Shown: one piece after another, positions 33,344-63,144 of the stretch
How the letters are laid out: the number at the start of each line of letters is the position of its first letter
How positions within the stretch are numbered: position 1 is the first letter of the stretch
From: a virus
Reading direction: 5' to 3' (one strand)
Virus record (IMG/VR): IMGVR_UViG_3300037246_000990
Location: 1 to 64,000 of that record
DNA length: 64,000 nt
The notes under the pieces: model-generated
Seen by the model: the letters and a program-made list of their open reading frames with translations, nothing else
Told to the model about the DNA's origin: nothing
The model's database searches: none
Position numbers and translations under genes: made by a program

Positions 33344-33658
33344 ATGAAAGAATGGATAGAAGGTTCAGGGGTTTACAGGGTTCCAGTCGAGGAACTCCCT
33401 AAGGATGCGTGGTTTGTCAGAGACCCAAAACGGTATGAAAACGAAGAAGTACAGCCTCTTCTGCATATCTGTGAGCAGGACCTAGACACAGGGGACACCA
33501 CGACATGGCTCATCTTGACTGCAAGAGTCCGGTGGGACTTTCATCGCGGCCTTTATTACTGTACAGGGTGCAAAAAGACATGGAACTCAACAAACGAGAA
33601 TGGGTTAAGAGCTATCTGGAGCGATGGTTTAGGCACGGGCGACGAAGGTCTGGCTTGA
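33344..33658 (+). CDS. HxC...CxxC family protein (divergent)
   Basis: LLHICE...YYCTGC. Confidence 0.6.
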   Translation: MKEWIEGSGVYRVPVEELPKDAWFVRDPKRYENEEVQPLLHICEQDLDTGDTTTWLILTARVRWDFHRGLYYCTGCKKTWNSTNENGLRAIWSDGLGTGDEGLA

Positions 33659-34026
33659 GAAACTACCACCGGAAGACGCTCATCCGCAAGGAGATGTGGC
33701 CCCAGATCGACGACTGGTACTGGTGCCCGAAACCCATCATCGATGAGAGGGTCCAGAAGGAGGATGACAGACTGAACATCATTGCTAGAGCCTCTCCGAT
33801 CTGGTTTGCGTTCGAATCGTGGAAGGCCCTACAATACGCATTAGGGTCCCGATTGGCACATGCTTGTGATGATGGCAGGATCAGGGCTGCATCGTGGGTG
33901 GAATACTACAGGGGCAAAGGAGGAAGTATCGGTATCTACGGTAAATGCCGACACTGTGAGGAGACCCTTTCTGATGGGATTAAAGGTATCATCATCATGG
34001 AGGAGGAGCTAGGATGGGAAACATAG
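33580..34026 (+). CDS. HxC...CxxC family protein
   Basis: LAHACD...KCRHCEETLSDGIKGII; start uncertain (33580 or TTG 33655). Confidence 0.6.
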   Translation: MELNKREWVKSYLERWFRHGRRRSGLRNYHRKTLIRKEMWPQIDDWYWCPKPIIDERVQKEDDRLNIIARASPIWFAFESWKALQYALGSRLAHACDDGRIRAASWVEYYRGKGGSIGIYGKCRHCEETLSDGIKGIIIMEEELGWET

Positions 34027-34349
34027 CCCGCACCATTCGTCGTGCTGGACCACTCCGCTTTACCGCCGACTGGAGCTGTAGCACCGTCTATCAACGCGTC
34101 CCTTCCAAAGAAGAGACGCAAAAGTCGCAAACTTCGATAAAGAAAATAGCCGAGAGGGTATACCTCGTTAAGTACAACTCAGTCGCGCATGAGATGCTCG
34201 TCCACCTCTGCGAGGATCGAGGAGACTACAAAGAGATGACATTCCGTGAGAACGACGACGGCCCGATGTATTGGTGTGAAGGGTGTGGGTTCGTTCTCGA
34301 TGACGGTACAGCGATGGCAATACGACTTTACGAAGCACCGATTTCATAG
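34014..34349 (+). CDS. HxC...CxxC family protein
   Basis: LVHLCE...WCEGCGFVLDDG. Confidence 0.6.
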   Translation: MGNIARTIRRAGPLRFTADWSCSTVYQRVPSKEETQKSQTSIKKIAERVYLVKYNSVAHEMLVHLCEDRGDYKEMTFRENDDGPMYWCEGCGFVLDDGTAMAIRLYEAPIS

Positions 34350-34357
34350 GAGACAAC

Positions 34358-34564
34358 ATGGGTAAACGAAGACGCAATCCGAAAACAATCCTTGCAGGAG
34401 CAATAGGGTTCTCGAAAATACGTTACTGCCCGGATCACAACAAGCCTGTGAAGGCCGTGAGACTGTTCGGCAGAAAAAGTATGATGTTCCACTGTGCCGA
34501 AGGCTGCAAGCTGGACAAGAACAGAACCGTCCTCAAGGTGCCGGAAGGCCCCCAGAAACGATAA
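34358..34564 (+). CDS. small basic Cys/His protein (not clearly in the family)
   Basis: CPDH...HCAEGC, AGGAG RBS. Confidence 0.6.
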   Translation: MGKRRRNPKTILAGAIGFSKIRYCPDHNKPVKAVRLFGRKSMMFHCAEGCKLDKNRTVLKVPEGPQKR

Positions 34565-34947
34565 TGCCGGATATAATGCTGAAGTACGGCTGCACAGAAG
34601 ACCAAATCCGATTCGAAATGGATGACTGGGCGTTGGTCGCTACGCCCGTAGGTCACGAAGGATTGGACTGTGTGCATGGATGCCACCGCAAAGACAGCAT
34701 AGGCATAGTCATTCAGTGGAGCTACGCGATACCGGGCGATCCGAATTGCCCTGGTTGTGACGCGGTCATGCCTGATGAGGTACAGGGCTTGTTCCAAATG
34801 GCAAATGCAGACTATATAGGGCGGATCCCTATTGGTTGGTACAAGCAAGAGATCGAACGTGGCGTCGCCAAAAGCTTCGCCCAACTCGAGAAGCAATACT
34901 TCCTCAGCGGGTCAGGGTATAAGTACGACCCCAAGGAGGAGGCATGA
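34564..34947 (+). CDS. HxC...CxxC family protein
   Basis: DDWAL, VHGC, CPGCDAVMPDEVQGL. Confidence 0.75.
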   Translation: MPDIMLKYGCTEDQIRFEMDDWALVATPVGHEGLDCVHGCHRKDSIGIVIQWSYAIPGDPNCPGCDAVMPDEVQGLFQMANADYIGRIPIGWYKQEIERGVAKSFAQLEKQYFLSGSGYKYDPKEEA

Positions 34948-35480
34948 GCGGATACCACCAGATGATTAAGGATCTCATGACGAGACCTAAGATACCGGCC
35001 AGCCTTCACACAGTGGGCAAATGGGCTATACCCACAGAAAGCGCAATGCTTTTTACGGCAGGCGGGCACCCTGTTCAACCACCGCCACCTCCACATACAC
35101 TGATCTACAACGACAAAGACCCGGACTACAATCCTCATTTCGAAGACCTAAAAGAAGTAACCTGTGAAATCCTTTTTGAACTCGACGGGTGGCAAATCGA
35201 GCACTACGAAGGTACCCCTACCCCATCTGAAGTGGATTGGATCTCGCACGACTGCCCGGTAGAGAAATGGCGCTATCGCATCGATCAATGGCAATTGATG
35301 GGCGACGGCGTATGCCCTGCTTGTTGCACACCCGTTCCGGACGAGGTGATGGGATTATGGAAACTAAAGAACTTCGACAAACTCCCCGCAATGGAAGAAG
35401 CGAGACACATGAGCCACGTACGTATCTATCCGGATAGCCACACGCCTGAAGATGCAGAAGGAGATATGCCGTGGGTCTAG
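34944..35480 (+). CDS. HxC...CxxC family protein with N-terminal extension
   Basis: DGWQI, SHDC, CPACCTPVPDEVMGL. Confidence 0.75.
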   Translation: MSGYHQMIKDLMTRPKIPASLHTVGKWAIPTESAMLFTAGGHPVQPPPPPHTLIYNDKDPDYNPHFEDLKEVTCEILFELDGWQIEHYEGTPTPSEVDWISHDCPVEKWRYRIDQWQLMGDGVCPACCTPVPDEVMGLWKLKNFDKLPAMEEARHMSHVRIYPDSHTPEDAEGDMPWV

Positions 35481-35752
35481 AAGATCTCTTCTTGTACAAC
35501 GACACACCTATAATCGAGGAAGGAACATGGAGACTCCTCGCACCTACTAAATGGGGTGTGAAATGGAAACACCTTTCCGAAGCACCTATCGTGATTCACG
35601 TATGCCCTAAAGCTCCTTTATATGCGGGGGAGCGTGAAGTCAGCTCTAACCGCATGAAAGACTCCCCATACTGCACGATATGCAAAGAAGAGGTCCCTGA
35701 GAGCATCCAAGCCGTATGGCAGATGACACATATGGAGGCAATGTTAGGATGA
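35471..35752 (+). CDS. HxC...CxxC family protein
   Basis: GTWRL, IHVC, CTICKEEVPESIQAV. Confidence 0.75.
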   Translation: MGLEDLFLYNDTPIIEEGTWRLLAPTKWGVKWKHLSEAPIVIHVCPKAPLYAGEREVSSNRMKDSPYCTICKEEVPESIQAVWQMTHMEAMLG

Positions 35753-36024
35753 ACCCCTTTTCTCTAGCCAACTACGAATGCGTAATGGAAGATGAGACTT
35801 GGTACCTAGTCCGAAACAATTGGTCACGCAACTACAACCTACGCCATTACTGCGCTGATGGGGAGATGGACGACCTCTGTGCGAGGTACCGCTGGGATGA
35901 GTTCCAGCGGGCTTGCCGGAGATGTGGGAGCCTCCCGAGCAAAGAGATCCAAGGGATGTACGTCATGTTGACAGGAGACATGGACGCTGCCCCTCGGTGT
36001 GTACCAGAAGGGACAAAGTACTAG
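35749..36024 (+). CDS. HxC...CxxC family protein
   Basis: ETWYL, RHYC, CRRCGSLPSKEIQGM. Confidence 0.75.
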   Translation: MNPFSLANYECVMEDETWYLVRNNWSRNYNLRHYCADGEMDDLCARYRWDEFQRACRRCGSLPSKEIQGMYVMLTGDMDAAPRCVPEGTKY

Positions 36025-36032
36025 GAGACGCT

Positions 36033-36374
36033 ATGACGTACCAACCGACAGCGTACATGAGCATGCTACAGCGAGAAGGCCGATTCCGGTTGTTGAAGAG
36101 CAAGCTGAGCAAAGACGTCCGGATCTGGCATAACTGCGAGACCTACGGCGACGCAGAACTCGTCAAGCACCGTACCGTCTACGTATGCCAGTACGGCGAC
36201 TGGGAACAGTTCGATTCTAGTCCGGATGAGCATGGCTGGCGCTGCACGATGTGCAACGCTCTCAGCCCTGAAGGGTTAACTGGAATCTACATCATGCTGG
36301 ACTGGGACCGCGCTACAAACGAAATCGCAAACGTTTCAGAGCAAATGTCCGAGTATGAGGCGTTACCGTTTTGA
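36033..36374 (+). CDS. HxC...CxxC family protein
   Basis: GRFRL, WHNC, CTMCNALSPEGLTGI. Confidence 0.75.
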   Translation: MTYQPTAYMSMLQREGRFRLLKSKLSKDVRIWHNCETYGDAELVKHRTVYVCQYGDWEQFDSSPDEHGWRCTMCNALSPEGLTGIYIMLDWDRATNEIANVSEQMSEYEALPF

Positions 36375-36638
36375 GTGACTACCGTGAGTAGCTTCCTCGA
36401 CGAGCAGATCCTGTGGGAGGATGACGGGTTCATCATCATCACCGATCACTACATCGATCCTGGCCGGGAGGGATTACCGACTGCCACGTTGTGGCACCGA
36501 TGCCGTGACAAGACAGACGATGCCAGCGTGATATGCCGCCCGCAAGAATACCCATGGTGCTCTGGTTGTCACCTTCATGTTCCTGCTGAGCTGGTTGGGT
36601 TCTGGGAGCTGGTGCGATACGGGCAGGAGCAAGGATGA
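36375..36638 (+). CDS. HxC...CxxC family protein
   Basis: DGFII, WHRC, CSGCHLHVPAELVGF. Confidence 0.75.
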   Translation: MTTVSSFLDEQILWEDDGFIIITDHYIDPGREGLPTATLWHRCRDKTDDASVICRPQEYPWCSGCHLHVPAELVGFWELVRYGQEQG

Positions 36639-37087
36639 GTTTATCTAACATGATTAACGTGAGAGACGTATGGAAAGACCAAGCCGAGTACATCGAAAAA
36701 GAGTACGGCGATGAGAAGCTCAAACGAGGCCGGTGGAGAGTCATCCAGTACTCCGTACACCACAGCGATGTAGGAGAGCACGGACTCTGGCACCAGTGTG
36801 AAAAGACAGAATGGGAGATGTACCTTTGTGAGTACCGAGCCGACGTAGGGTCTGACTCTAGTTTCAATGGGACCCGGAAGATCAAGCCCAACTGGCACTG
36901 CGAGAACTGCTTCGCAGTTCCACCCGCAAGCATCGTTGCTGTCTGGTGCCTGCTAGAGCCTGACGTAACCTCCGCGGAGGTGAGCACAGCCTTGAAGCTA
37001 CGCGCCGATATAGACGACGAAGAAAGGTATGATAACGTATGTTGGCAAAGCAGGCAGGTCCCCCTCCCGTACAAAGGGCCCTACTAA
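36635..37087 (+). CDS. HxC...CxxC family protein
   Basis: GRWRV, WHQC, CENCFAVPPASIVAV. Confidence 0.75.
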   Translation: MSLSNMINVRDVWKDQAEYIEKEYGDEKLKRGRWRVIQYSVHHSDVGEHGLWHQCEKTEWEMYLCEYRADVGSDSSFNGTRKIKPNWHCENCFAVPPASIVAVWCLLEPDVTSAEVSTALKLRADIDDEERYDNVCWQSRQVPLPYKGPY

Positions 37088-37347
37088 TGGATACCCTGGA
37101 CGTCTACAAAACTGACGGGGACTGGCGGTTGTCTCGCAGGTGCGCCGGGACAAAGATGCGGCATACGTTCCTAGAGCACAACTGCGGTTACGAAGACCCC
37201 CGGGCAGTGGTACAACCTAGCAAACGGTACTGGCATGCGCTTATCTACACCGTCGAGGCCCGAAACCAGGCTTGTGCTCTTTGTCAGACCCGGGCTTCAG
37301 ACGGCCTCCAAGCGATATTCTGGATCATGAAAGAGGAGCCCATATGA
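37087..37347 (+). CDS. HxC...CxxC family protein
   Basis: GDWRL, EHNC, CALCQTRASDGLQAI. Confidence 0.75.
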   Translation: MDTLDVYKTDGDWRLSRRCAGTKMRHTFLEHNCGYEDPRAVVQPSKRYWHALIYTVEARNQACALCQTRASDGLQAIFWIMKEEPI

Positions 37348-37583
37348 CTGACGTCAAAACGGTCCGCTTTGAAGATGGACTTTTCAGGCTATCCCGGTAC
37401 CGATACAAGGGCGGGTTTGACTGGTGGTTCATCGAGCACCGGTGTGGCCGTGGAGGCCACTGGAAATGGTTTAGTGGGGTCCCGGAAGACTGCCACGCAC
37501 CGTGTTGGGCTTGCACAGCCGTCGTTCCGGACGGGCTCCATGCGATGTTCTGGTTCGTGAAGGATGGACAAGGTTATGAATGA
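37344..37583 (+). CDS. HxC...CxxC family protein
   Basis: GLFRL, EHRC, CWACTAVVPDGLHAM. Confidence 0.75.
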   Translation: MTDVKTVRFEDGLFRLSRYRYKGGFDWWFIEHRCGRGGHWKWFSGVPEDCHAPCWACTAVVPDGLHAMFWFVKDGQGYE

Positions 37584-37842
37584 CTCGAAAACGCAACCCA
37601 CCCCCTTAGCCGCCGAAGGTGGTTGGGGGTTGTATGAGCAAGGCGAAGACACGCCAGACTACATGCAAGGAACCCCTTACTTGTGGTATTTGTGGCATGA
37701 CTGTGGGCCCGAGAGGGTGGGCTGCGCCCAACGATTCATGTACAAGCATATGGACACAGCTTGTTCATGGTGTAACTGCCCTGTACCTGCGGGGCTCCAG
37801 GCGTTGTTCGTCCTGCTGACAGGAGACATGGAACATGAATAA
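37576..37842 (+). CDS. HxC...CxxC family protein
   Basis: GGWGL, WHDC, CSWCNCPVPAGLQAL. Confidence 0.75.
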   Translation: MNDSKTQPTPLAAEGGWGLYEQGEDTPDYMQGTPYLWYLWHDCGPERVGCAQRFMYKHMDTACSWCNCPVPAGLQALFVLLTGDMEHE

Positions 37843-38068
37843 AGAGACTCTGATCACTATCGATGCCTTCCGGATTACTCAACGCCCCTGGAACTCAAGC
37901 TCTGTATATATCGAGCATTATTGTAATGGGGAATACACCGGACGTGGCCCGGGTTGGTTGGTTCACGCTTGCGACACCAGAGCCAGCCAACACCCTTGCT
38001 GCTTCTGCAAAGAGAAACCAGCAGACGGGATCCAGGCCATGTTCTGGTTCTTGAAGGAAGGGTCATGA
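37835..38068 (+). CDS. HxC...CxxC family protein
   Basis: DAFRI, EHYC, CCFCKEKPADGIQAM. Confidence 0.75.
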   Translation: MNKETLITIDAFRITQRPWNSSSVYIEHYCNGEYTGRGPGWLVHACDTRASQHPCCFCKEKPADGIQAMFWFLKEGS

Positions 38069-38304
38069 CAGTTCTGATCACTATCGGTAAGTTCCGGCTT
38101 ACCTACCGCGACCGCATCGCCTCGGGCATGCGTGATGTCTGCATCGAGCATAAATGCGAAAGCGCGAACGCCTGGCCCATGAAAGGCTGGCATCCTTTCG
38201 TTTACGGGCTCGACTACCGGGGTATTTCGTGTTTCGCATGTCATGCGACCCCTGATGAAGGTATCCAGGCCATGTTCTGGTTCTTGAAGGAAGCCCGTGA
38301 CTAA
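38065..38304 (+). CDS. HxC...CxxC family protein
   Basis: GKFRL, EHKC, CFACHATPDEGIQAM. Confidence 0.75.
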   Translation: MTVLITIGKFRLTYRDRIASGMRDVCIEHKCESANAWPMKGWHPFVYGLDYRGISCFACHATPDEGIQAMFWFLKEARD

Positions 38305-38536
38305 ACAAACCCACATTACAGATGGGAACTGGCGCGTCACAGGCTGGAACGACTCAGGTATCTATGCGTATACCATGATCGAGCATTTATGCGTCAAACA
38401 CCCAGACCTCTCTGGATGGTGCGACCTGAGCTACGGCGTTGCGTATCGCGGGATGCCTTGCATGTACTGCAAGAAATCCGCTCCGGGGGGCATCCAGGCT
38501 GTGTACTGGTTCTTGAAGGATAACGAACTGAAATGA
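38297..38536 (+). CDS. HxC...CxxC family protein
   Basis: GNWRV, EHLC, CMYCKKSAPGGIQAV. Confidence 0.75.
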   Translation: MTKQTHITDGNWRVTGWNDSGIYAYTMIEHLCVKHPDLSGWCDLSYGVAYRGMPCMYCKKSAPGGIQAVYWFLKDNELK

Positions 38537-38832
38537 CTAAAGACGAATGCGAAGTCAAGCTCGAAATGGGCGATTGGATGATAGCGAAGTTCTATGCATC
38601 GAGCGTACACTTCATGTACCACCGATGTCATATTGATAAAGTGTCGTATTACGCAGCGATGTTCCACGAACTGGCGTTCTCTCCAAGAGCAGGATGCTCC
38701 AACCCCTGCTGGGCCTGTGCTGGTTGTGGAGCCTCGGTTCCAGAGGAGCTGGAAACCGTGTATCTACTGCTCGAATCAGAGTACGCGTACGACATCATGC
38801 AAAAGCACCAAAACACCTTAAATAACACCTAA
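38533..38832 (+). CDS. HxC...CxxC family protein
   Basis: GDWMI, YHRC, CAGCGASVPEELETV. Confidence 0.75.
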   Translation: MTKDECEVKLEMGDWMIAKFYASSVHFMYHRCHIDKVSYYAAMFHELAFSPRAGCSNPCWACAGCGASVPEELETVYLLLESEYAYDIMQKHQNTLNNT

Positions 38833-39367: not shown

Positions 39368-39378
39368 TTATTGACGTT

Positions 39379-39470: not shown

Positions 39471-39722
39471 ATGTACAGACTCAGCAAACGACCCAGCCCG
39501 ATGACCATGTTTGTCAGTGCTTGCGACACGGTGAGACGCCAAGAGGCCAAAATCGACGTACAATGTCGCAAACTGGAGGGTCTAAAGGCCTTGGTCCTGG
39601 CCCAAGAGCATAGGATCGAGATAGCAGAGCGCAAGAAGCGACACCTTGAGAAACTCCGGTGGGACAGAGAGCTAATGCTTGGCTTCACTAAAGCCGAGAA
39701 AAAGATCACAACTAGGGCATAA
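39471..39722 (+). CDS. hypothetical protein
   Basis: 83 aa, first gene after the promoter. Confidence 0.5.
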   Translation: MYRLSKRPSPMTMFVSACDTVRRQEAKIDVQCRKLEGLKALVLAQEHRIEIAERKKRHLEKLRWDRELMLGFTKAEKKITTRA

Positions 39723-39751
39723 TGCCCCAGTCACGTAGGAAGGAGAACACC

Positions 39752-40048
39752 ATGACCAAGACACAACTGAAGGCAGCAAAGGCGGAACTCAAACGGATCA
39801 ATGACTTCATCGCAAAGCACGAACTCGGCGCCGGAGGGTTCGAAATCACAGAGAACGTGGTGAACACCAAGGCCCACGGTGAACGCTACGTGTTCGTGAA
39901 GCTCGACAAGGACGACTTGAAGCTGCGTAAGCAGCTCAAGGGTATTCGCTACGGTGAGCAGGGGCGAGGTAAGGCACGCTGGAACCGCGAAGCGATGCTC
40001 TGGAGCATCAAGGCATCGGCGCTCGATGGCACCGTGTTCGGGTCGTAG
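39752..40048 (+). CDS. basic early protein, paralogue of 43088..43474
   Basis: KAELKRIN.FI...IRYG..GRGKARWN....WSI; AGGAG RBS. Confidence 0.7.
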   Translation: MTKTQLKAAKAELKRINDFIAKHELGAGGFEITENVVNTKAHGERYVFVKLDKDDLKLRKQLKGIRYGEQGRGKARWNREAMLWSIKASALDGTVFGS

Positions 40049-40137
40049 CGTGGAGATCCTAGTCTGTCTGATAGTCGTCATGGTACTGTACCTATGCCTT
40101 CGTGACGGCTGCTAAAGCTGATCTGGCAGCATAGTAA

Positions 40138-40198
40138 CATAGCTCAAAGGCACAAAGGGTACCATTAACGACCTTTGTAGCCTTTGGTCTATGATGCA
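40138..40198 (+). repeat. 61-nt structured hairpin element, copy 1
   Basis: identical to 40737..40797; CATAG/CTATG, CAAAGGC/GCCTTTG, ACAAAGG/CCTTTGT stems. Confidence 0.9.
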
Positions 40199-40226
40199 TA
40201 CCGCATTGTAGCCACAAGAGGGTATT

Positions 40227-40439
40227 ATGAAATACATAACAAAGCCGGAAAAGGCCGAGGCTGAAGTGACGACAAAGACCACCGACGAGGGTGTGAACGT
40301 GATCATCAATGGGTGCGTTGTGTTGGCGTTCAAGAATGGCGACGACAGAGTGCAGCTCATCAAAGGTGTCAGTGAGGCCAGGACAGGGCTTCGGACGGAC
40401 AATGTTGGGCTTGTCTTTGTCAACGTGTGTGCTGAGTAG
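40227..40439 (+). CDS. hypothetical protein
   Basis: 70 aa, GAGGG RBS after the hairpin. Confidence 0.6.
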   Translation: MKYITKPEKAEAEVTTKTTDEGVNVIINGCVVLAFKNGDDRVQLIKGVSEARTGLRTDNVGLVFVNVCAE

Positions 40440-40613: not shown

Positions 40614-40736
40614 TTCTTTGCCTTTATTCGAGGTTCAACCATGATATTGAAATGTCCTAAGTGCGGCAAGACAGTGAAAACGTGGTGGTCGGCTGTCGTA
40701 GGGTGCCTAAGGTGCAGACCACTGACCATTGGGTAG

Positions 40737-40797
40737 CATAGCTCAAAGGCACAAAGGGTACCATTAACGACCTTTGTAGCCTTTGGTCTATGATGCA
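40737..40797 (+). repeat. 61-nt structured hairpin element, copy 2
   Basis: identical to 40138..40198. Confidence 0.9.
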
Positions 40798-40825
40798 CTG
40801 GGTATCATAGTCACAGGAGTGTCAA

Positions 40826-41074
40826 ATGAAAGTTCATATGGTAGTCCGCATAGATAGCTATGGTGTCACAATCATCGGGCCATTCAAAGACCGCGAAGCA
40901 GCCAAGCAGTATCAGGAGCGCAGAGTCAAGCTTCTGAGAGAGGAAGAGGTCAAAGGGATAAGTCTTCGAGGGGGAGTGGCGTTCCTCATCAATACGGTCA
41001 ACGAGCCCATAGAATCACTGATGGTCGAAGAGGCCAAAGCCAAGACCTGTGGCTGCTGTGAGCACGGGAAGTAG
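40826..41074 (+). CDS. hypothetical protein with C-terminal CxCC motif
   Basis: 82 aa, AGGAG RBS, ends TCGCCEHGK. Confidence 0.6.
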   Translation: MKVHMVVRIDSYGVTIIGPFKDREAAKQYQERRVKLLREEEVKGISLRGGVAFLINTVNEPIESLMVEEAKAKTCGCCEHGK

Positions 41075-42678: not shown

Positions 42679-42918
42679 ATGACAACTCAGTACGTTATCT
42701 CAGCGCTGTTCACACTGGGTGACTGGTGTATCAGCAGCGACCCAACGGCACTACCTCGACACTATGCAGCTCATCGCTGTCCTGGTAAACACACGTACAC
42801 AACATGGGCTTGGGCTGTACCAGACTCTAGATTTAACAGGTTCGTGTGTTACTACTGCCATGAGTCTGTGCCTGATGAGATACAAGGGCTACTGGTCTTG
42901 CTCTCATCAAAGATATAA
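42679..42918 (+). CDS. HxC...CxxC family protein
   Basis: LFTLGDWCI, AHRC, CYYCHESVPDEIQGL. Confidence 0.8.
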   Translation: MTTQYVISALFTLGDWCISSDPTALPRHYAAHRCPGKHTYTTWAWAVPDSRFNRFVCYYCHESVPDEIQGLLVLLSSKI

Positions 42919-43087: not shown

Positions 43088-43474
43088 ATGCCCAAGAAGA
43101 TGAGCGTCAAAGAAATGAAAGCCGAACTCAAACGACTCAATGCCTTCATCGGCAGCGAGCAAGGCTCGAAGTCCGAAGGGAATTTCGGACGAGTCATCGG
43201 ATACCGGAACGACAAGAACAGCGACGAGTACGGTACTGAGTACACGTTCATGGAGTTCGTGGACGCCAACGACGTGCCTCTCGGTTCCCCTCGGGGCAAC
43301 TCGGAGGCCGAAGAGGTGCTGAAGGCGATTAAGAAGATCCGCTTCGGCAAGAACAAGCGAGGAAAGGCACGGTTCAACAAGAAGGCCGGTGCTTGGAGCA
43401 TCCAGACCGAGCACGTCCCGTCTTTCGTAACGATGGGTACCAAGAACAAGGCGGGTAAGTTCACAGCCAAGTAG
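43088..43474 (+). CDS. basic early protein, paralogue of 39752..40048
   Basis: KAELKRLNAFI...IRFGKNKRGKARFN....WSI. Confidence 0.75.
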   Translation: MPKKMSVKEMKAELKRLNAFIGSEQGSKSEGNFGRVIGYRNDKNSDEYGTEYTFMEFVDANDVPLGSPRGNSEAEEVLKAIKKIRFGKNKRGKARFNKKAGAWSIQTEHVPSFVTMGTKNKAGKFTAK

Positions 43475-43561: not shown

Positions 43562-43567
43562 CAGTTC

Positions 43568-43628
43568 GATAGCTCAATGGCACAGAGGGTACCATCAGCG
43601 ACCTCTGGAGCCATTGGCCTATGGTGCA
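43568..43628 (+). repeat. hairpin element, covariant copy directly after tRNA-His
   Basis: compensatory changes relative to copies 1 and 2. Confidence 0.85.
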
Positions 43629-51560: not shown

Positions 51561-51561
51561 A

Positions 51562-52955: not shown

Positions 52956-53155
52956 GATATCATAAACGAGAAACAATACCCGACGACGGTGACGCCCACT
53001 TCTTCCGTGAAGATGAAATACACGAGGCTATTGATAACCTCAATGATTGTTTCTTTCCGGTCAAGATTTCTGTGGTTACCAAGAAAGAATACATGGACGA
53101 TACCTACGGAGAGGGAGATTGGACCCAAGAAGATTGGGATAACAACGAGGACTGA
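52952..53155 (+). CDS. small acidic protein
   Basis: 67 aa D/E-rich, RBS present. Confidence 0.5.
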   Translation: MRYHKRETIPDDGDAHFFREDEIHEAIDNLNDCFFPVKISVVTKKEYMDDTYGEGDWTQEDWDNNED

Positions 53156-53184
53156 GTGACTGGGAGAAGTAACGTGGAGGGTGA

Positions 53185-53658
53185 ATGACTAAGAAAACTA
53201 AAGAGAGATTCTGGGCTAAGGTACAGAAGGGACCGAGATGTTGGCTGTGGAAGGCTGGTAAAAACAATAAGGGTTATGGTAACTTTTGGGTAGGAGGAAA
53301 GTGTTGTAAATCTCATCGACTATCTTATGAAATGAAACACGGGTCTATACTTAATGGCATGTATGTATGCCACCATTGTGATACCCCGGCCTGTGTAAAT
53401 CCAGATCATTTGTTTGTAGGCACACAAAAAGATAATGTCATAGATTGTATGAACAAAGGGAGAAACAACAAAGGAAAAAAGATAGGAAGCTGCAACGTGG
53501 GCTCATTACACCCACGGGCCAAGCTGACGGAGGAACAAGTCAAAGATATCCTAACAGACACAAGACTTCATAGAGAGATAGCAAAAGATTATGGTATAGA
53601 TAAATCAATAATATCTAAAATAAAATCAAAGAACATATGGAAGCACGTAAAGGAGTAA
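53185..53658 (+). CDS. HNH homing endonuclease (type B)
   Basis: RFWAKV, SHR, VCHHCDTPACVNPDHL..GT.KDN, AKLTE; AT-rich. Confidence 0.88.
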   Translation: MTKKTKERFWAKVQKGPRCWLWKAGKNNKGYGNFWVGGKCCKSHRLSYEMKHGSILNGMYVCHHCDTPACVNPDHLFVGTQKDNVIDCMNKGRNNKGKKIGSCNVGSLHPRAKLTEEQVKDILTDTRLHREIAKDYGIDKSIISKIKSKNIWKHVKE

Positions 53659-53661: not shown

Positions 53662-54879
53662 ATGAAGAAAATCGACACTGACAATCCGAGAGAGAAGCTA
53701 ACAAAAGCTCGGATGCAGCTTCTAATGGCCTTTCCTTTCTTCGGTGAACTTGTAATGCGGATAGTTTTTCACGAGTCTAAAACAGCCGGGGTAGGTACTA
53801 CCTGTATAGATCATAAGGGTAATCTTTGGTATCACCCTGATTGGGTACGTGGGTTCACCTCTACTCAAGAAACTATGTTTGAGTTGAGTCACGAAGTCAT
53901 GCACTTGGTACAGCGATGCACCGTCCGGTTCCCCAACGGGGGCAACCATCAGGTGTGGAATATTGCGGCTGACATCAAGGTAGATAGCATCCTCGTTGAT
54001 GCAGGGATGGCCCAATCCAGGGTGAGTAAGAAGAACATCACCGACGAGATCATGGAGAAGTACAAAGGCAAGACCACGGAGCAGATCTATTACCATCTGA
54101 TCCAGAACCCAGAGGATCAGAAAGACTTTGGTGGTTGCCCCCACCCCGATGGGGAAGGGGGTGAAGGCCCTAATACTAAGCCGGGTAGCCAAGTTGGTGA
54201 TCGTGGCTGTACCTCAGGTGCTTTGCATGGTGAGAAGATAGACACCGAGACGATAGAGAAGTGGAAGCAACACGTTATCGCCGCTGCTATCAATGCAAAG
54301 AACAGGGGTAAGTGCCCTGGATTTGCTGATGATTTCTTGGTTGATATCCGCAGACCCAGCGTGACATGGAAGGATCTCCTCCGAAGGCAAGCTACCTCGA
54401 TGTTCCGTGGTAGATACGGCTACCATCGTGACAACAGGCGGTCCCGTGCCTTCGGGATGAAGCTCCCATCAAGGACACGTAGCCCCAATGGTGCCATCAT
54501 AATGATCGACACCTCTGGGTCTATCAGTGACGACAACCTGTCTCAGTTTGTATCGGAATGCTCCGGTATCCTGAGAGAAACAGGGTGTCAGTTCCTCAAG
54601 ATCTACTTCCATGATGTTGAGTGCTACCACATAGAGGAGTACGACCTCAACACCATCAAGAAGATCAAGGCCACACGGGGTGGCACCTCACACATTGATG
54701 TCTTTGAGAAGGTGGAAGAAAGCCGTGACAAGGTAGGTATGGTGATCGCCTTCACTGATTTAGAGACAGCGTTCCCTCCAATACCGCCTGAGTTCCCGGT
54801 ACTCTGGGCTCACCCGCCTGGATACGAGCAGCATGCAGTGCCCTTCGGGATCAAGGTGAAGGTGGACCTGACGCTGTGA
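53662..54879 (+). CDS. DUF2201-type metallopeptidase-like + VWA protein (MoxR partner)
   Basis: HEVMH, WNIAAD, IDTSGSI (MIDAS), GGTS, FTD. Confidence 0.88.
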   Translation: MKKIDTDNPREKLTKARMQLLMAFPFFGELVMRIVFHESKTAGVGTTCIDHKGNLWYHPDWVRGFTSTQETMFELSHEVMHLVQRCTVRFPNGGNHQVWNIAADIKVDSILVDAGMAQSRVSKKNITDEIMEKYKGKTTEQIYYHLIQNPEDQKDFGGCPHPDGEGGEGPNTKPGSQVGDRGCTSGALHGEKIDTETIEKWKQHVIAAAINAKNRGKCPGFADDFLVDIRRPSVTWKDLLRRQATSMFRGRYGYHRDNRRSRAFGMKLPSRTRSPNGAIIMIDTSGSISDDNLSQFVSECSGILRETGCQFLKIYFHDVECYHIEEYDLNTIKKIKATRGGTSHIDVFEKVEESRDKVGMVIAFTDLETAFPPIPPEFPVLWAHPPGYEQHAVPFGIKVKVDLTL

Positions 54880-55280
54880 GCCAAGACAGGGAGATACCCG
54901 CGCCGGGCAATGTCCTTCAGGTCGATGGAGAGTGGCAACTTGAAAATCACAACCACGACAAGGGACCCGTCATCAGACACAACTGCGACGACGAAAACAA
55001 CGGCAATACCTACATTATAGACTTGAACCGTGAATTCCCGATGTGCCGCCATTGTGGTGCTGACATACCGAACAGTATGATCTCGGGGTTTAGCTTACTC
55101 AACTACAACGAGTCCACAAACGATGAGTACTTCGTGGATCCTAAGTATGAAGTCCTAGACTTTGTCTACAACGGGCACCTCCGAGAAAGATGGGACAAAG
55201 TGATCGTAGTCGAGGAAATTGACAAAGAGCAGGTACTAGCAGCCATAGCCGAATGGAAAACTGAACAGGAGTTGACATGA
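54876..55280 (+). CDS. HxC...CxxC family protein
   Basis: GEWQL, RHNC, CRHCGADIPNSMISG. Confidence 0.7.
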   Translation: MSQDREIPAPGNVLQVDGEWQLENHNHDKGPVIRHNCDDENNGNTYIIDLNREFPMCRHCGADIPNSMISGFSLLNYNESTNDEYFVDPKYEVLDFVYNGHLRERWDKVIVVEEIDKEQVLAAIAEWKTEQELT

Positions 55281-55504
55281 GTGAAGCCGTGCTTAGTGAT
55301 TGGTTCTCAATGGATGAGAAAGTAACCCACTTCTGCGGAGGTACAACGGACGAGAAGAAAAACAACAAGCCGAAAGAGACACAGGTAGAGCTAACTAAAT
55401 GGTTCAACCCCACGAAAACTAAGGAAGATTCCGAGGTGCTAGTATGCCTAGCGTGTGGTGCTGAGCATCAACCGGATGAACCCACCGTTGAAGTTGGAGG
55501 ATAA
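55277..55504 (+). CDS. HxC...CxxC protein (divergent)
   Basis: THFC...VCLAC. Confidence 0.5.
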   Translation: MSEAVLSDWFSMDEKVTHFCGGTTDEKKNNKPKETQVELTKWFNPTKTKEDSEVLVCLACGAEHQPDEPTVEVGG

Positions 55505-58654: not shown

Positions 58655-58656
58655 AC

Positions 58657-58998
58657 ATGATTAAACCTTTTCAAAACTATATGGCAGCATACCAGGCTGA
58701 CAGCAAAGCACTCCTTCACGATGGTAACTGGACTATCGAGAAGCTAAGTGAACTAGAAGAAGCACAGGGCTTCAGGTCACATCGGAGTGATTACTTCTCA
58801 TTGCTCAAGCATGTGTGTTATCCCAAGGGGTACGACGGTAAGGTTCCTTACCCAGAAAACGGGAGCAACTGCGTGTATCAAGTGGTGGTGTACCCCGACG
58901 TCAGATCAGATTGCTGGCGTTGCGCGGCAAAGATACCCGAAGGCATGGTAGCGGTGTGGAAGTTTCAGAATTGGGAGCAACTAAAGTATGGAGGCTAA
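58657..58998 (+). CDS. HxC...CxxC family protein
   Basis: GNWTI, KHVC, CWRCAAKIPEGMVAV. Confidence 0.75.
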   Translation: MIKPFQNYMAAYQADSKALLHDGNWTIEKLSELEEAQGFRSHRSDYFSLLKHVCYPKGYDGKVPYPENGSNCVYQVVVYPDVRSDCWRCAAKIPEGMVAVWKFQNWEQLKYGG

Positions 58999-59680
58999 GA
59001 AACGAACAAGGCGGGTACCCAAGCGGTTGAACACACCCTTCCTGAAGCATGGCATAACGGAGATCAACAACGAGATCGAGAAGGCGTACTCCAAGGTGAC
59101 AGGAAAGGACAAGCTATGGCAGACGTATGACAAGATCCAGGTATCAGATGCAGAGGCGTGCTTCCGCCAGTACCGTGGCAAGTGTGTGTTCTGTGACACA
59201 CGCCTCAGCTACCTAGGCAGGGTAACGATGCCCGCAGCACGGCTAATGTTCTACGTACCACTCAAGGTAGGTGGTGAAGCACGGCCCGACAACCTCATCG
59301 TAGTATGCGCTCACTGCAAGCATGAGTACCGAGACACACGCAAGCTGAGGCAGGACATAGTAGGGCTGGATAGCTTTGCTGACTGCTGCGAAGAGTTGTT
59401 CATAGCCATCAAGGAAGGGCACCCCCAAGCTAAGATCAACATGCTTAAGGCACGAATCAACACACGGCTGACCGATGTGGCTACGTGTATGAGGTACGTC
59501 ACCACCCCCGACTGGAGGCCAGTCAAGATGGAGAAGCTGGTTGATGGGAAAAACACAATGGCTGAGGCACTGGAAAGTATGGGTAAGGGAGAGGATACGA
59601 AGGAGGCTATCACGAACAACGTGAAGCAGGCAGTGACAACTAAACAGTACAGGATCATGAGGGAGCCAACCGATGAGTAA
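58988..59680 (+). CDS. degenerate HNH-fold protein
   Basis: CVFC...VPLKVGG....NLIVVCAHC; the catalytic DH position reads FY. Confidence 0.6.
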   Translation: MEAKKRTRRVPKRLNTPFLKHGITEINNEIEKAYSKVTGKDKLWQTYDKIQVSDAEACFRQYRGKCVFCDTRLSYLGRVTMPAARLMFYVPLKVGGEARPDNLIVVCAHCKHEYRDTRKLRQDIVGLDSFADCCEELFIAIKEGHPQAKINMLKARINTRLTDVATCMRYVTTPDWRPVKMEKLVDGKNTMAEALESMGKGEDTKEAITNNVKQAVTTKQYRIMREPTDE

Positions 59681-59712
59681 GTTTGCCATCAACCTCGCAA
59701 GGTGGGCAACAG

Positions 59713-59994
59713 ATGCTGACGCTTGAAAAGATCTTTGAGAAACAGATCAGAACCAACATTATTAAAAGGGAAATCCTGTTTGAAGATGGGCTATGGTGTA
59801 TCTACAAAAGAACACCAGCCGACATTAACAGCACACACAGTCTCATCCATAGATGTAGTATATACGTATGGTCCGCAACCCTAAAAACACTTCCGGTCAG
59901 GTGCCCTGAATGTGAAGAGGCAGCACCTGAAGGGATACTGGGGTTGCTTGAGCTGCAACAGTGGGGAACAAAGGACGGTAAGTATGCTAATTGA
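59713..59994 (+). CDS. HxC...CxxC family protein
   Basis: GLWCI, IHRC, CPECEEAAPEGILGL. Confidence 0.7.
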   Translation: MLTLEKIFEKQIRTNIIKREILFEDGLWCIYKRTPADINSTHSLIHRCSIYVWSATLKTLPVRCPECEEAAPEGILGLLELQQWGTKDGKYAN

Positions 59995-61453
59995 GTTCGA
60001 CAACACCGTAGCTCTAATCAAACCAGAGGATGATGATGAGCTAAAGATGTACGCTCAGGTACGAGATGGGGTCAAGACTATGGCCCCCGGTGCCCGGTAC
60101 ATGAGGCAGCATAAGCTCTGGCTCCAAACGAAAGGGGCAAGAGGGTGGGATGGGCGCACCAGCATCCTCAGTAAGGCACACCCCAGCAACGGCAGTGCCT
60201 TCTTCCCTACGGGGCTGCTGCCCTACATCCACACAAAGCTAGCGGAGCTGGTTGTGTTGCCCTTCACCTTCAATGACCTGAGGCATACGCCACCAGTACC
60301 CAGCTACAACTACACTGTACCACTATTTGACTTCCAAGCCATAGTCTTCCTTGATGCAGTAGACAACAGAGTATTCATGGGAACCACAGCAGGCTATCAC
60401 TGGCCTCAAGGTGTACTTCAGATAGCAACTGGAGGGGGCAAGACAGAGCTAGCTGTAGCTATGTGCCAAGCGATACCTGTACCCACCATGTTCATCGTCC
60501 ATCGTAAGCACCTAGTTACCCAAGCTAAAGCTAGGTTCGCTAAGTATGGTATCACAGCGGGGCAGATAGGTGATGGGGTGTTTGACCCCAACACCTCCGG
60601 CGTGACTATAGCCACAACACAAACACTAGACCGGTTGTTCAAAGAGGGCGACAACGAGAAGATCAAGCAATTCTTAGGAGCAGAGCAGATCTTCTTCGAT
60701 GAGGCCCACCTTGCCGCCAGCAAGATAGCAGTGGGGAACCAACTTGTTTCGGTGTCTCGTCAGTTCCGCAGGGCGTACTACAGGTGGGGCCTAACCGGAA
60801 CCGCCTTTATGAAGGACAAATACAGTAACCAACTCCTTATGGGGTGTACTGGCGATAGGCTTGCTCATATCACCAGCGACCAGCTCATCAAAGCGGGCTA
60901 TCTCACGCCACCTCGGGTAGTGATGATAAATATGCCTGATATCGGCAGGCCAAAGAGTTGGCCTGAAGTATTTGATCACGCCATCGTTCTAAATCTGAAT
61001 CGGAACAAAAGAATCATAGAGGAGTTGGACAAATGCCCAAAGCCTGCGCTGGTGATGTCATCACGATTATCACATGCAAGTATCCTCCGAAGAATGGCGA
61101 TAAATAAAGGGATTTCGGTTCCGTCCGTTCATTGCGGGGCTACGAAAAACAAGGATAGAACCAAAGGGATAACTGACTTGCAATCTGGGAAAATAAATGC
61201 TATAATTGCTACAACAATCTATGACGAGGGTTTGGATATCCCCGAGCTACGTACCCTCATCTTGGCCGGAGGGGGTAAGAGTAAAGTGGCAGCACTTCAG
61301 AAGATTGGCCGAGGCTTGAGGAAAGCAGCAGGGAAACATGAGGTGCTGATCATTGATTTCTGTGATCAGACGGGAGCAATACTAAAACGACACTCGGCTG
61401 CGAGGAAAAAGATATGGGAGGAAGAAAACTTCAATGTTACAGAGGAAGACTAA
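59984..61453 (+). CDS. superfamily 2 DNA helicase (UvsW-like)
   Basis: WDG, ATGGGKT, DEAH, GLTGT, EGLDIP, QKIGRGLR. Confidence 0.92.
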   Translation: MLIEFDNTVALIKPEDDDELKMYAQVRDGVKTMAPGARYMRQHKLWLQTKGARGWDGRTSILSKAHPSNGSAFFPTGLLPYIHTKLAELVVLPFTFNDLRHTPPVPSYNYTVPLFDFQAIVFLDAVDNRVFMGTTAGYHWPQGVLQIATGGGKTELAVAMCQAIPVPTMFIVHRKHLVTQAKARFAKYGITAGQIGDGVFDPNTSGVTIATTQTLDRLFKEGDNEKIKQFLGAEQIFFDEAHLAASKIAVGNQLVSVSRQFRRAYYRWGLTGTAFMKDKYSNQLLMGCTGDRLAHITSDQLIKAGYLTPPRVVMINMPDIGRPKSWPEVFDHAIVLNLNRNKRIIEELDKCPKPALVMSSRLSHASILRRMAINKGISVPSVHCGATKNKDRTKGITDLQSGKINAIIATTIYDEGLDIPELRTLILAGGGKSKVAALQKIGRGLRKAAGKHEVLIIDFCDQTGAILKRHSAARKKIWEEENFNVTEED

Positions 61454-61898
61454 AGACTGGAAGAGATTCTGGAGCAAGGTAAAGAGAGGCCCGAACTGTT
61501 GGGAATGGCAAGCAGGTTGCTGCTCTGATGGTTACGGTAAGTTTTGGTTTGAAGGTCGAAATAGTCTGGCTCATCGTGTGTCGTATGCAACAAGCCAGGG
61601 TATACCAGAAAAGCTGTGTGTCTTACATACCTGCGATAACCCACCATGTGTCCGACCCTCTCACTTGTTCCTAGGGACACAGGCCGATAACGTAGCTGAC
61701 ATGGTAATCAAAAGAAGGCAATCATATAATACCGGCGCTTGTGGTGTCCAACACGGGAACGCAAAGCTCACAGAAGCACAGGTGAAAGCTATCCGCTGCG
61801 ACCCTAGGCTACAGTGTATAATAGCTAAAGATTACAAGGTGAGTCGTTCTACAATAACTTATATTAGGCAACGCAAAACCTGGAAGCACGTCGCATAG
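61434..61898 (+). CDS. HNH homing endonuclease (type B)
   Basis: RFWSKV, AHR, VLHTCDNPPCVRPSHL.LGT..DN, AKLTE. Confidence 0.88.
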   Translation: MLQRKTKDWKRFWSKVKRGPNCWEWQAGCCSDGYGKFWFEGRNSLAHRVSYATSQGIPEKLCVLHTCDNPPCVRPSHLFLGTQADNVADMVIKRRQSYNTGACGVQHGNAKLTEAQVKAIRCDPRLQCIIAKDYKVSRSTITYIRQRKTWKHVA

Positions 61899-61908
61899 GA
61901 ACCCACCA

Positions 61909-62178
61909 ATGGATGCTATAAAGTATGGCCAAGTCATGCTCACAGAAGGTGAGTTCTCCATCAAGGCAGGAATATTTAGTTATTTCATAGTACATGACGT
62001 TTGTGGTACTGGTGTTTATTCTGTAATGAGAGACAGGACCCCAGGGAAACATGATTGGTGCCGACGCTGCTACGACCTCTACGGTAAGAAGATACAATAC
62101 GATGAGAAAATGACAGGAATCGTAGCTCTACTAGATTGGAAAGATGAAGGAGACAGCCGTGACCAATTTGCTGAGTAA
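61909..62178 (+). CDS. HxxC...CxxC family protein (divergent)
   Basis: GEFSI, VHDVC, CRRC...MTGIVALLDW. Confidence 0.6.
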   Translation: MDAIKYGQVMLTEGEFSIKAGIFSYFIVHDVCGTGVYSVMRDRTPGKHDWCRRCYDLYGKKIQYDEKMTGIVALLDWKDEGDSRDQFAE

Positions 62179-62857
62179 CGCAAAGACAAACGCTAAGACA
62201 AAGAAGATGTTGGATGAGTTCGGATACGAAGGGGTCATTCACTACATGGCGCCTGACGTGGTGGCTGACGGAAAACACACAGTATGCCCTCATAGCACGA
62301 TAGGTTGCCGTGAGTCTTGTCTATATACTGCTGGTCGAGGAGCTATGAGAAATGTGCAAGATGCACGCATCCGTAAGACACTGGAGTTCCTCAAGGACAA
62401 GCAAGGGTACGCAGACAAGTTGGTCAAAGAACTGGCCAACCTTGAGACCCGTGCCTTGAAGAAGGGTTACACGCCAGTAGCTCGGCTGAATGGTACGTCA
62501 GACATCCCATGGGAGAACTACATCGACATGGAAGCCCTCCCCAACGTCCGATTCTATGACTACACCAAGGGTTATATGAGGATGCAGAGCTGGCTGCGTG
62601 GGGTGCTACCTTTCAACTATCATCTGACATTCAGCAATGATGAACACACGACGCTTGCAGAGCGGCACTTCATCCTGGCGAAGGGAGGCACCGTGGCCAT
62701 GGTATTCAGGGATAAGATCCCCGACTGCTGGCAGATGTACCCTGTAATTTCAGGTATGACACACGATTTTAGATTCCGTGACAAGACAGGCTGCATCATA
62801 GGGCTACTCGCAAGGGGCCGTGCCAAGCAAGACAGCACAGGGTTTGTGGTGGATTGA
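62144..62857 (+). CDS. GP88-like phage protein
   Basis: VCP....C...CLYTAGRG, RLNGTSDI.WE, FYDYTK, NYHLTFS, D.RF.D. Confidence 0.75.
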   Translation: MKETAVTNLLSNAKTNAKTKKMLDEFGYEGVIHYMAPDVVADGKHTVCPHSTIGCRESCLYTAGRGAMRNVQDARIRKTLEFLKDKQGYADKLVKELANLETRALKKGYTPVARLNGTSDIPWENYIDMEALPNVRFYDYTKGYMRMQSWLRGVLPFNYHLTFSNDEHTTLAERHFILAKGGTVAMVFRDKIPDCWQMYPVISGMTHDFRFRDKTGCIIGLLARGRAKQDSTGFVVD

Positions 62858-63144
62858 TGAGTACGAGCAACGTAGGTACACTAAAGATCCTAGTACCTGA
62901 CATACAAGGGTGGGCAATAGTTAAACACCAGTTCAGCGTGACGGGTACTTCCATCCATGGTGAACATTTAATAGGATGCAAACATGCCTTCGATAGACTG
63001 ATAGCTCGTTGGTGCTGGGAGTGGAGCGATGCTGGTGTAGAGAATACGGACCGCTGTTGGGTGTGTAAAGAACCTGTGCCAGAAGAGATCGTAGCGCTAG
63101 TAGCGATGATGAATTGGGAGAAGATACAACGTGGCAAACCTTAA
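62854..63144 (+). CDS. family variant (CxH...CxxC)
   Basis: QGWAI, GCKH, CWVCKEPVPEEIVAL..MMNW. Confidence 0.7.
   Translation: MMSTSNVGTLKILVPDIQGWAIVKHQFSVTGTSIHGEHLIGCKHAFDRLIARWCWEWSDAGVENTDRCWVCKEPVPEEIVALVAMMNWEKIQRGKP

Follow-up and report, generated by a model that had tools for sequence, protein, structure and literature searches.

The first 64 kb of the virus record IMGVR_UViG_3300037246_000990 (positions 1–64,000, here called the window) contain, from 33,344 to 63,144, a large set of small genes whose products have four His/Cys residues in a common frame. They are best explained as an old, lineage-specific multigene family of small (~70–180 amino acids, aa) stand-alone proteins, probably zinc-binding, in an uncultured clade of marine-sediment phages. 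The whole record is 119,599 bp long, has direct terminal repeats and a GC content of ~50%, and is rated 100% complete. It holds 29 robust members and three to four divergent ones, all on one strand, and within the window we count 17 tandem and 11–12 dispersed family genes. The 34 open reading frames (ORFs) considered total 10,581 nt, which is 8.8% of the genome, or ~8.5% when the two doubtful ones are set aside.

Membership was judged with a profile of alignment A1, which contains 28 of the 29–30 candidates listed in the first-pass annotation of this DNA (34358 and 55277 were left out; genes are named by their start positions). The search with this profile covered the complete genome, whose six frames hold 1451 ORFs of 40 aa or longer. 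This alignment, hidden Markov model (HMM) and genome search, which the annotation had proposed, sets 32 ORFs with expect values (E) of at most 2e-4 apart from the remaining 1419. Every one of the 32 lies on the + strand between 33.3 and 77.8 kb, and the next-scoring ORFs were 55277–55504 (E 0.023) and then others at E 0.12 or worse. Since such E-values are circular for the 28 sequences of A1, each sequence was also scored with a profile of the other 27. In this leave-one-out search 25/28 members were recovered at E < 1e-3, and three were marginal (33344, E 0.091; 34014, E 0.026; 61909, E 0.036), with 9–11 bits against 9.6 bits for the best shuffled sequence. The earlier count of 17 tandem and 12 dispersed genes was right in ORFs, motifs and positions, with 55277 as a borderline case.

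The common frame, numbered after the 77-aa member 37835–38068, runs from a G/D-x-W/F-x-hydrophobic hairpin over hydrophobic-x-H-x-C, a Trp and C-x-x-C to P-[DE]-x-[ILV]-x-[GA], which leads into a hydrophobic helix; the three anchors named in the first-pass annotation do align over it in A1. Besides the start Met, only H28, C30, C55 and C58 are invariant among the 28 sequences, and mean column identity is 13%. In a wider alignment, H, C, C and C occupy the four ligand columns in 131/135 sequences, and in the remaining four a His or a neighbouring Cys stands in. The segments between the anchors had been described as wholly different. They do differ in every paralogue, but their spacing varies moderately, from 12 to 29 residues for W..H and from 13 to 37 for C..C. 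They had also been called rich in W/Y/R, and this is true of Tyr (7.1% in the loops versus 3.3% background) and slightly of Arg, with Gly and Asp enriched in addition, but Trp (6.4% versus 1.9%) sits in the framework. The proteins have a median isoelectric point (pI) of 5.8; 17/34 are acidic, and of the set only the non-member 34358 is basic. No fused form turned up when proteins of 313–2000 aa were searched, which is weak evidence that the proteins stand alone.

Structure prediction supports one shared fold, in which four antiparallel strands would form a sheet, followed by a C-x-x-C knuckle and, at the C terminus, an amphipathic helix. The AlphaFold2 model of 37835, built with A1 (model 1; predicted local distance difference test, pLDDT, 91.2; predicted template modelling score, pTM, 0.80), has strands at residues 4–9, 12–17, 20–30 and 40–45 and a helix at 64–76. 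Its third strand ends in H28 and C30, and the knuckle of C55 and C58 precedes the helix. The second model was made for 58657 (113 aa), a member with 17–22% identity to most of the family, and used the 135-sequence alignment, which consists mostly of metagenomic relatives. At a pLDDT of 76.2 it has the same order of elements, with strands at 17–22, 25–29, 48–54 and 74–78 and a helix at 95–104. Mean pLDDT over ten-residue blocks is 91–96 for knuckle and helix, 93 for the first hairpin, 77–81 for strands 3 and 4, and 57–61 for the two insertions. Thus two distant members are predicted with the same element order and a common His/Cys3 site, as the first-pass annotation had expected of a zinc-stabilised scaffold with variable loops. 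The putative metal site would be formed by the H-x-C at the end of strand 3 together with the knuckle, zinc being the metal that the ligand pattern suggests. A co-fold of a homodimer with zinc scored 0.27, under the mark of 0.42, and is evidence neither way.

In these models the fold core comprises the G-x-W-x-I hairpin, the H-x-C strand, one Trp of strand 4 and the knuckle with its helix, and the segments between them differ from paralogue to paralogue. The variable segments are connections between strands and are modelled at lower confidence. The first forms the tip of the hairpin of strands 2 and 3, and the second comes after H-x-C, at the opposite end of this strand. With strand 3 between them, these two main segments would, by topology, leave the sheet at opposite ends, which argues against a single face like that of antibody complementarity-determining regions (CDRs). 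The C-terminal P-x-x-I-Q helix had been likened to an F-box that docks on one partner. Its conserved positions are mainly hydrophobic or small, and in both models it closes the sheet, as the helix of PH-like folds does; it therefore reads as part of the fold core and not as a docking peptide; moreover, 0/28 members match the F-box model, and both structures have a single helix of 10–13 residues in this place.

As the first-pass annotation had suspected, no characterised family was matched significantly in Pfam, PHROGs, NCBIfam, PADLOC, PDB sequences, Foldseek or the ESM Atlas. Pfam gave 0/28 members at E ≤ 0.01, and for the 135 sequences only four unrelated singletons at chance level, including Zn_Ribbon_1 (E 0.0016). 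NCBIfam models matched 0/28 members, and PADLOC returned only two single matches (E 0.018 and 0.042). Profiles A1 and A4 had no match among PDB sequences (best E 0.03 and 0.26), Foldseek found nothing in PDB at E ≤ 0.001 or in BFVD (best E 0.94 and 0.12), and a search of the ESM Atlas was likewise without a usable match. A tblastn search with two members against 50,697 phage records found nothing at E ≤ 0.1, and no description of such a family came up in those portions of papers that a full-text literature search returned. The family probably has a small zinc-binding fold that is new and absent from current databases.

An exhaustive structural aligner placed the Homer EVH1 domain first for model 1 (2p8v_A; Z 5.0; root-mean-square deviation 3.7 Å; 69/77 residues aligned), followed by Ran-binding and PH domains. 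Model 2 gave largely the same list at Z 3.4–4.0 (2p8v_A at Z 3.8), and RanBP2/RanBP3 and Dcp1 EVH1 domains were among the top rows for both. By the guidance of this aligner, Z < 8 indicates a common arrangement, and Z 5.0 is within noise. The overlap of the two weak lists supports a common fold of both modelled members and a PH-like general arrangement. PH-like folds (EVH1/WH1, RanBD, PH) are protein- or peptide-binding modules, and the likeness would lie in a bent antiparallel sheet that a single C-terminal helix closes off. However, they have seven strands and no metal site, whereas the family is predicted to fit four strands and a zinc knuckle into 77 residues, at 3–12% identity.

Small zinc fingers (zinc ribbons, Lar-like proteins, SWIM, WRKY-GCM1) resemble the family in their small size, C-x-x-C knuckle and structural tetrahedral Cys/His site, but the first ligand pair of the family is an H-x-C on a strand and not a second knuckle. 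Pfam zinc-ribbon models matched 1/135 sequences, which is chance level. Member 34014 matches the Lar-like phrog_6795 weakly (E 0.0021) and the other 27 members do not; Lar/RalR was rejected, as hhalign of A1 against Escherichia coli RalR/Lar gave 4.8% probability over 10 columns with only CxxC aligned, and PF14354 had no match at E ≤ 1 genome-wide. A comparison with YdaE gave nothing. For SWIM (PF04434) there was no match at E ≤ 1 in the genome while 14/14 control genomes were positive, and its ligand order is CxC..CxH as against H-x-C...C-x-x-C. WRKY-GCM1 is described in PMC1702500 as a four-stranded zinc-chelating DNA-binding fold. The ligand order of WRKY-GCM1/FLYWCH is reversed (C..C..HxH) and no Pfam match was found for the 28 or the 135 sequences; these folds are also absent from the fold-comparison lists, which alone decides nothing. 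HNH/beta-beta-alpha-metal fingers (PF01844, PF13392) were also set aside. PF01844 matches 111542–111667 and 59255–59317 and no member, and the family has no conserved Asn or second His.

Relatives have so far been found only in metagenomes, and uncultured viruses are as yet the only known carriers of the family. Among 1.84 billion representative proteins, a profile search gave 825 relatives at E ≤ 1e-3, of which 11 reached E ≤ 1e-10. The best 150 of the 825 are 67–192 aa long (median 91) and carry the full signature; 3/150 have two domains, and nine are proteins of this genome, which contributes 11 of the 158 sequences collected. Ten relatives that we looked up belong to clusters of 1–3 sequences on contigs of 0.5–7.9 kb, and two relatives of family members are annotated as hypothetical proteins from a marine sediment metagenome. 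IMG/VR contains one sibling phage, a complete record of 119,470 bp with 34 profile matches, or 36 ORFs in the 60 kb examined, and the metagenome contigs L003 and L006 hold further arrays. Pattern scans of IMG/VR with the sub-alignments A2 and A7 found the one sibling only and with A3 none, and scans with A2 and A3 of one genome per prokaryote species found none, and no host or prophage clue was obtained; these scans rely on short degenerate patterns and may miss relatives. The phage itself is distant from all cultured ones, since its MoxR-like AAA+ protein has only 30% identity to the closest cultured-phage relative, that of Bacillus phage G, and a 718-aa ORF of the leftward structural and packaging block (26181–28337, − strand) has no tblastn match at E ≤ 1e-5 in the 50,697 cultured-phage records.

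Comparison with the sibling indicates that the copies are individually maintained. The two sibling phages are syntenic at 67–94% nucleotide identity and have 24 reciprocal, syntenic orthologue pairs of family proteins with 33–82% amino-acid identity. No reciprocal best match was found for 10/34 ORFs (eight clear members, the non-member 34358 and the divergent 61909), and 10 ORFs are sibling-only. The ratio of non-synonymous to synonymous substitution rates (dN/dS, omega) is 0.10–0.52 in 26/26 family ORF pairs. Pooled over the 24 orthologue pairs, omega is 0.20 for the framework (confidence interval, CI, 0.16–0.25) and 0.41 for the loops (CI 0.33–0.50), so that loops evolve twice as fast as the framework yet are clearly constrained. 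Loops of orthologues are 48–58% identical in amino acids, and 16/17 gapped codons within the domain fall in loops. The loops are thus conserved between orthologues by purifying selection and are therefore paralogue-specific rather than hypervariable; in the dN/dS comparison that the first-pass annotation had called for, the faster loops appear but hypervariability of the arms-race kind does not. Since each paralogue, loops included, is under purifying selection between the siblings, each copy should have its own maintained job. Median orthologue identity is 64% for the family and 76.5% for other ORFs of the region (Mann–Whitney p = 0.015), a comparison set that includes some spurious overlapping ORFs.

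The first-pass annotation had compared the variable loops with antibody CDRs. As in antibodies and engineered scaffolds, a constant core is combined with differing loops rich in Tyr/Gly/Asp/Ser. However, antibody repertoires have a diversification mechanism and the family has none, its loops are under purifying selection (dN/dS 0.41), and by topology its variable segments lie at opposite ends of strand 3 and not on one face, so the analogy was not upheld. A diversity-generating retroelement target was rejected as well: the complete genome contains no RVT_1 reverse transcriptase, and the direct repeats of 33–64 kb include no template-like repeat.

Within the genome, identity between paralogues reaches 44% at most, and the closest paralogue of a gene often lies next to it. 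At identical framework residues, synonymous codon identity is 0.419 versus 0.398 expected (4843 codon pairs). This is the random level, and therefore the expansion is old and not generally homogenised; general gene conversion among paralogues is ruled out by the same figures. The two closest paralogue pairs have 18/24 and 17/23 identical codons (p ~1e-3), a signal lost after correction for 382 pairs. Only in these closest pairs is framework dS (synonymous divergence) unsaturated, at 0.46–0.80, while the rest of their sequence, the loops, is saturated at synonymous sites (proportion of synonymous differences, pS, 0.73–0.85), and they have exact DNA patches of 28–31 nt in common. This pattern hints at loop replacement, patchy conversion or misaligned non-homologous loops, and is not significant after the correction.

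Relatives differ in copy content through the gain and loss of entire gene units. One sibling orthologue stands where this phage has 37835, 38065 and 38297, and the array of contig L003 is composed differently: the 38533 type occurs in it three times, and two neighbours are fused. This fused pair, P0001 (192 aa; 5404–5994 of L003), is one read-through ORF that joins the 38297 and 38533 types, which are separate overlapping genes in the window. A 37-nt patch coding for the helix recurs at a spacing of 229–259 nt in six consecutive genes. Recombination between framework-coding DNA patches is probably the simplest explanation for gain and loss of units.

For function, position and anatomy lead us to a tentative proposal, which we hold at slightly less than even odds: the copies may be a set of binding modules, made early in infection, in which every paralogue has a specific target of its own. 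Gene direction divides at ~33.2 kb, leftward to its left and rightward to its right, and the 17-gene array would be the first rightward operon behind a host-type promoter at this point of divergence. The copies would then bind proteins or small ligands, every one of them directed at its own component of the host or of host defence. In phages such as T4, T7 and SPO1, the small genes that open early operons are for the most part devoted to taking over the host and countering its defences. We favour specific binders because of the first-operon position, the mostly acidic to neutral proteins and the Tyr/Gly/Asp-rich loops, whose composition is frequent among binding loops. An adaptor or inhibitor library, which the first-pass annotation had also put forward, seems the most plausible function.

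The candidate promoter is sigma-70-like (TTGCAA-17-TATAAT, 33309–33337, + strand), lies directly before the first gene of the array and has 10/12 consensus matches; it faces divergent promoter-like sites on the − strand at 33297–33269 and 33263–33234. Its −10 hexamer ends 6 nt before the first ATG, which leaves no room for a ribosome-binding site, and the first gene may have a leaderless mRNA.

Several points weigh against the proposal of early specific binders. Early expression of the array would follow from the one consensus match at 33309–33337, and promoter-like sites near the array are not above the shuffled level (13 versus a mean of 11.5). Zinc binding is suggested by the ligand pattern only, and binding of a partner is, for every member, a prediction. 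The 11–12 dispersed members of the window and the four beyond it lie inside a replication and repair block, often translationally coupled to an enzyme gene, which fits a phage-internal role too. The loop dN/dS of 0.41 carries no arms-race signature, which many counter-defence proteins show, and the divergence of family orthologues exceeds that of other ORFs in the region only moderately.

A fuller version of the binder proposal goes further. In it, a zinc-clamped mini-scaffold of a new zinc-finger fold class would have its loop pairs exchanged or rebuilt by recombination at framework patches, and ~30 specificities against takeover targets and defences would be drawn from a shared pool of hundreds of variants. 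We consider this version possible but doubtful. It would be the phage counterpart of immune-evasion multigene families of the poxvirus type. Such families of large eukaryotic viruses (poxvirus Bcl-2-like and ankyrin/PRANC families, MGF families of African swine fever virus, ASFV) consist of tandem paralogues of one scaffold with turnover between strains, each aimed at a different host factor. The likeness to our family is that many paralogues of one small scaffold occur per genome, in tandem and with turnover between strains; the differences are another fold, another host domain and no shared ancestry.

The main rival to host-directed binders is that members work within the phage's own machinery of DNA replication, repair and recombination, as accessory subunits or as regulators, dispersed copies serving the enzyme encoded upstream and tandem ones further phage proteins. 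It fits the purifying selection on each copy and above all the position of the dispersed members, which start within a few nt of the stops of DUF932, MoxR-like AAA+, DUF2201 metallopeptidase/VWA and GP88-like genes, and likewise beyond the window, at junctions conserved in the sibling phage. However, such tight coupling is normal in compact phage genomes, and over half of the family sits in an operon without enzyme genes. The siblings differ in the number of members at a given junction, for example after the AAA+ gene (one versus three), while the enzymes are 92–97% identical. Moreover, the sibling has no match to the stretch 52950–53650, and a family member there fills the slot that is occupied by an HNH endonuclease gene here. 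Varying copy number and this exchange suggest that the junctions are general insertion hot spots rather than sites of fixed partnerships. We regard the accessory-subunit explanation as unlikely.

Next in order stands the explanation that members bind nucleic acids or nucleotides, as zinc-finger regulators of transcription or translation or as sponges for nucleotide signals, each with its own specificity. Zinc-stabilised mini-domains often bind nucleic acids, the loops are Tyr-rich and slightly Arg-rich, and aromatic-rich pockets suit nucleotides. Four-stranded zinc-chelating DNA-binding folds such as WRKY-GCM1 also exist (PMC1702500). The acidic to neutral character of the proteins, the only basic one being the non-member, argues against DNA binding. 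In addition, no nucleic-acid-binding family matched the 28 members, the 135 sequences gave only the four chance-level singletons, and the ligand order H-C...C-C is unlike that of WRKY, FLYWCH and SWIM, the last of which has no match in the genome. We give this explanation only a slender chance.

Less probable again, and with little to recommend it overall, is that the family is largely cargo of a selfish or near-neutral kind, which recombination at conserved DNA patches would have carried about within and among related phages while it brought them little benefit. Presence and absence do vary between close relatives, members and HNH endonuclease genes occupy the same kind of junctions, and conserved framework-coding patches could drive unequal crossing-over. 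However, every orthologue pair has a dN/dS well below 1, loops included, 24 orthologues are kept in synteny, and ~8.5–8.8% of a size-limited genome is given to the family; no nuclease or recombinase motif was found, and the HNH model matches two other genes and no member. That members are small zinc-dependent enzymes of beta-beta-alpha-metal type, with a catalytic His and three Cys holding the metal, is scarcely credible: a His followed after ~20–40 residues by C-x-x-C and a helix does recall HNH-type fingers, but HNH Pfam models match no member, no other conserved polar residue is available for catalysis, and one active site would hardly persist in a 77-aa domain whose loops diverge.

Packaging limits make a ~30-copy expansion unusual in phages, and size-limited phage genomes rarely keep more than a few paralogues. 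Here ~30 copies of an undescribed 77-aa module take up nearly 9% of 120 kb, selection maintains every copy, and metagenomes contain hundreds of additional variants. Should the copies prove to be specific binders, they would amount to a ready-made collection of inhibitors or adaptors that act on bacterial proteins and defence systems, would give protein engineers a compact natural scaffold, and would serve as a case study of how multigene families are built in viruses of bacteria. Even with function left aside, they form a new protein family with a probably new small zinc-binding fold outside current databases.

The tandem array extends from 33344 to 38832 on the + strand, and its adjacent genes either overlap or are separated by no more than 8 nt; lengths, whole-genome profile E and leave-one-out E are given below in this order. 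The first member (33344–33658; 104 aa; 3.8e-10; 0.091) is divergent, keeping HxC and CxxC, and has a sibling orthologue with 80% identity and dN/dS 0.15. The second, at 33655–34026 (1.5e-10; 3.4e-5), has an uncertain start (33655 TTG or 33694 ATG), and the divergent third, at 34014–34349 (111 aa; 1.9e-9; 0.026), is the sole member with a weak PHROG match. Embedded after it is the basic Cys/His protein 34358–34564 (68 aa; pI 10.8), which has no HMM match and is the 18th gene of the operon without being a family member; its sibling orthologue is 81% identical at dN/dS 0.34. Member 4 (34564–34947; 127 aa; 1.2e-15; 1.4e-9) is without a sibling orthologue, and member 5 (34944–35480; 178 aa; 1.2e-15; 1.8e-9) has a long N-terminal extension. 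They are followed by members 6 (35471–35752; 93 aa; 2.4e-16; 1.4e-9), 7 (35749–36024; 91 aa; 2.4e-18; 5.7e-12), 8 (36033–36374; 113 aa; 1.8e-21; 2.9e-14) and 9 (36375–36638; 87 aa; 7.6e-16; 6.2e-11), and by member 10 (36635–37087; 150 aa; 6.2e-15; 3.6e-8), which belongs to subfamily alignment A7. Shorter proteins are encoded by members 11 (37087–37347; 86 aa; 3.8e-22; 2e-15), 12 (37344–37583; 79 aa; 1.3e-18; 1.4e-13) and 13 (37576–37842; 88 aa; 2.1e-15; 6.2e-8) and by the minimal member 14 of model 1 (37835–38068; 77 aa; 2.8e-19; 1.5e-13). Members 15 (38065–38304; 79 aa; 1.5e-18; 2.7e-13) and 16 (38297–38536; 79 aa; 4.4e-19; 1.1e-12) lead to the last gene of the array, member 17 (38533–38832; 99 aa; 1.4e-14; 9e-10).

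The dispersed members, also on the + strand, begin with 42679–42918 (79 aa; 6.5e-19; 5.1e-15). Member 44347–44625 (92 aa; 1.1e-19; 5.7e-14) adjoins its closest paralogue 44625–44888 (87 aa; 1.6e-18; 1.3e-13), with which it has a 28-nt exact DNA patch in common, and 45179–45493 (104 aa; 7.6e-15; 4.1e-8) follows. Member 50338–50643 (101 aa; 1.2e-15; 3.9e-10) starts 2 nt past the DUF932 gene. Directly 3′ of the MoxR-like AAA+ gene lies 52713–52955 (80 aa; 7.9e-14; 5.5e-11), an HxH variant with the ligands HHCC, and 54876–55280 (134 aa; 1.1e-14; 2.2e-7) overlaps the stop of the DUF2201 metallopeptidase/VWA gene. The borderline relative 55277–55504 (75 aa; profile E 0.023) has HxC and CxxC and no P-x-x-I-Q helix; its sibling orthologue is 95% identical at dN/dS 0.10. 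The remaining members of the window are 58657–58998, used for model 2 (113 aa; 4.3e-19; 1.1e-9), 59713–59994 (93 aa; 3.8e-16; 4.3e-11), the divergent 61909–62178 (89 aa; 2.5e-8; 0.036) and 62857–63144 (95 aa; 3.6e-16; 1.9e-10), whose start lies at the stop of the GP88-like gene. Beyond the window, and outside A1, members start on the same strand at 64084, 77474, 65723 and 67892 (profile E 2.9e-11, 2e-10, 4.7e-7 and 2e-4).

Among the neighbouring genes, the MoxR-like AAA+ ATPase (51508–52710; 97% identical in the sibling) and the DUF2201 putative metallopeptidase with a VWA-like domain (53662–54879; 92%) form a conserved pair, and family members and an HNH gene sit between and after them. Free-standing HNH_3-type endonuclease genes are located at 53185–53658, 61434–61898 and, on the − strand, 32497–33216.

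A 99-nt intergenic element occurs three times in the region, at 40134–40232, 40733–40831 and 43564–43662, the second and third copies being 86% and 66% identical to the first. Within it lies an inverted repeat (CAAAGGC...GCCTTTG), its end coincides with a ribosome-binding site and ATG, and a small gene follows every copy. The genes 39722–40048 and 43088–43474 encode paralogous small proteins, a second and much smaller gene family of this region, and have a 34-nt DNA patch with 85% identity at 39779–39812 and 43118–43151.

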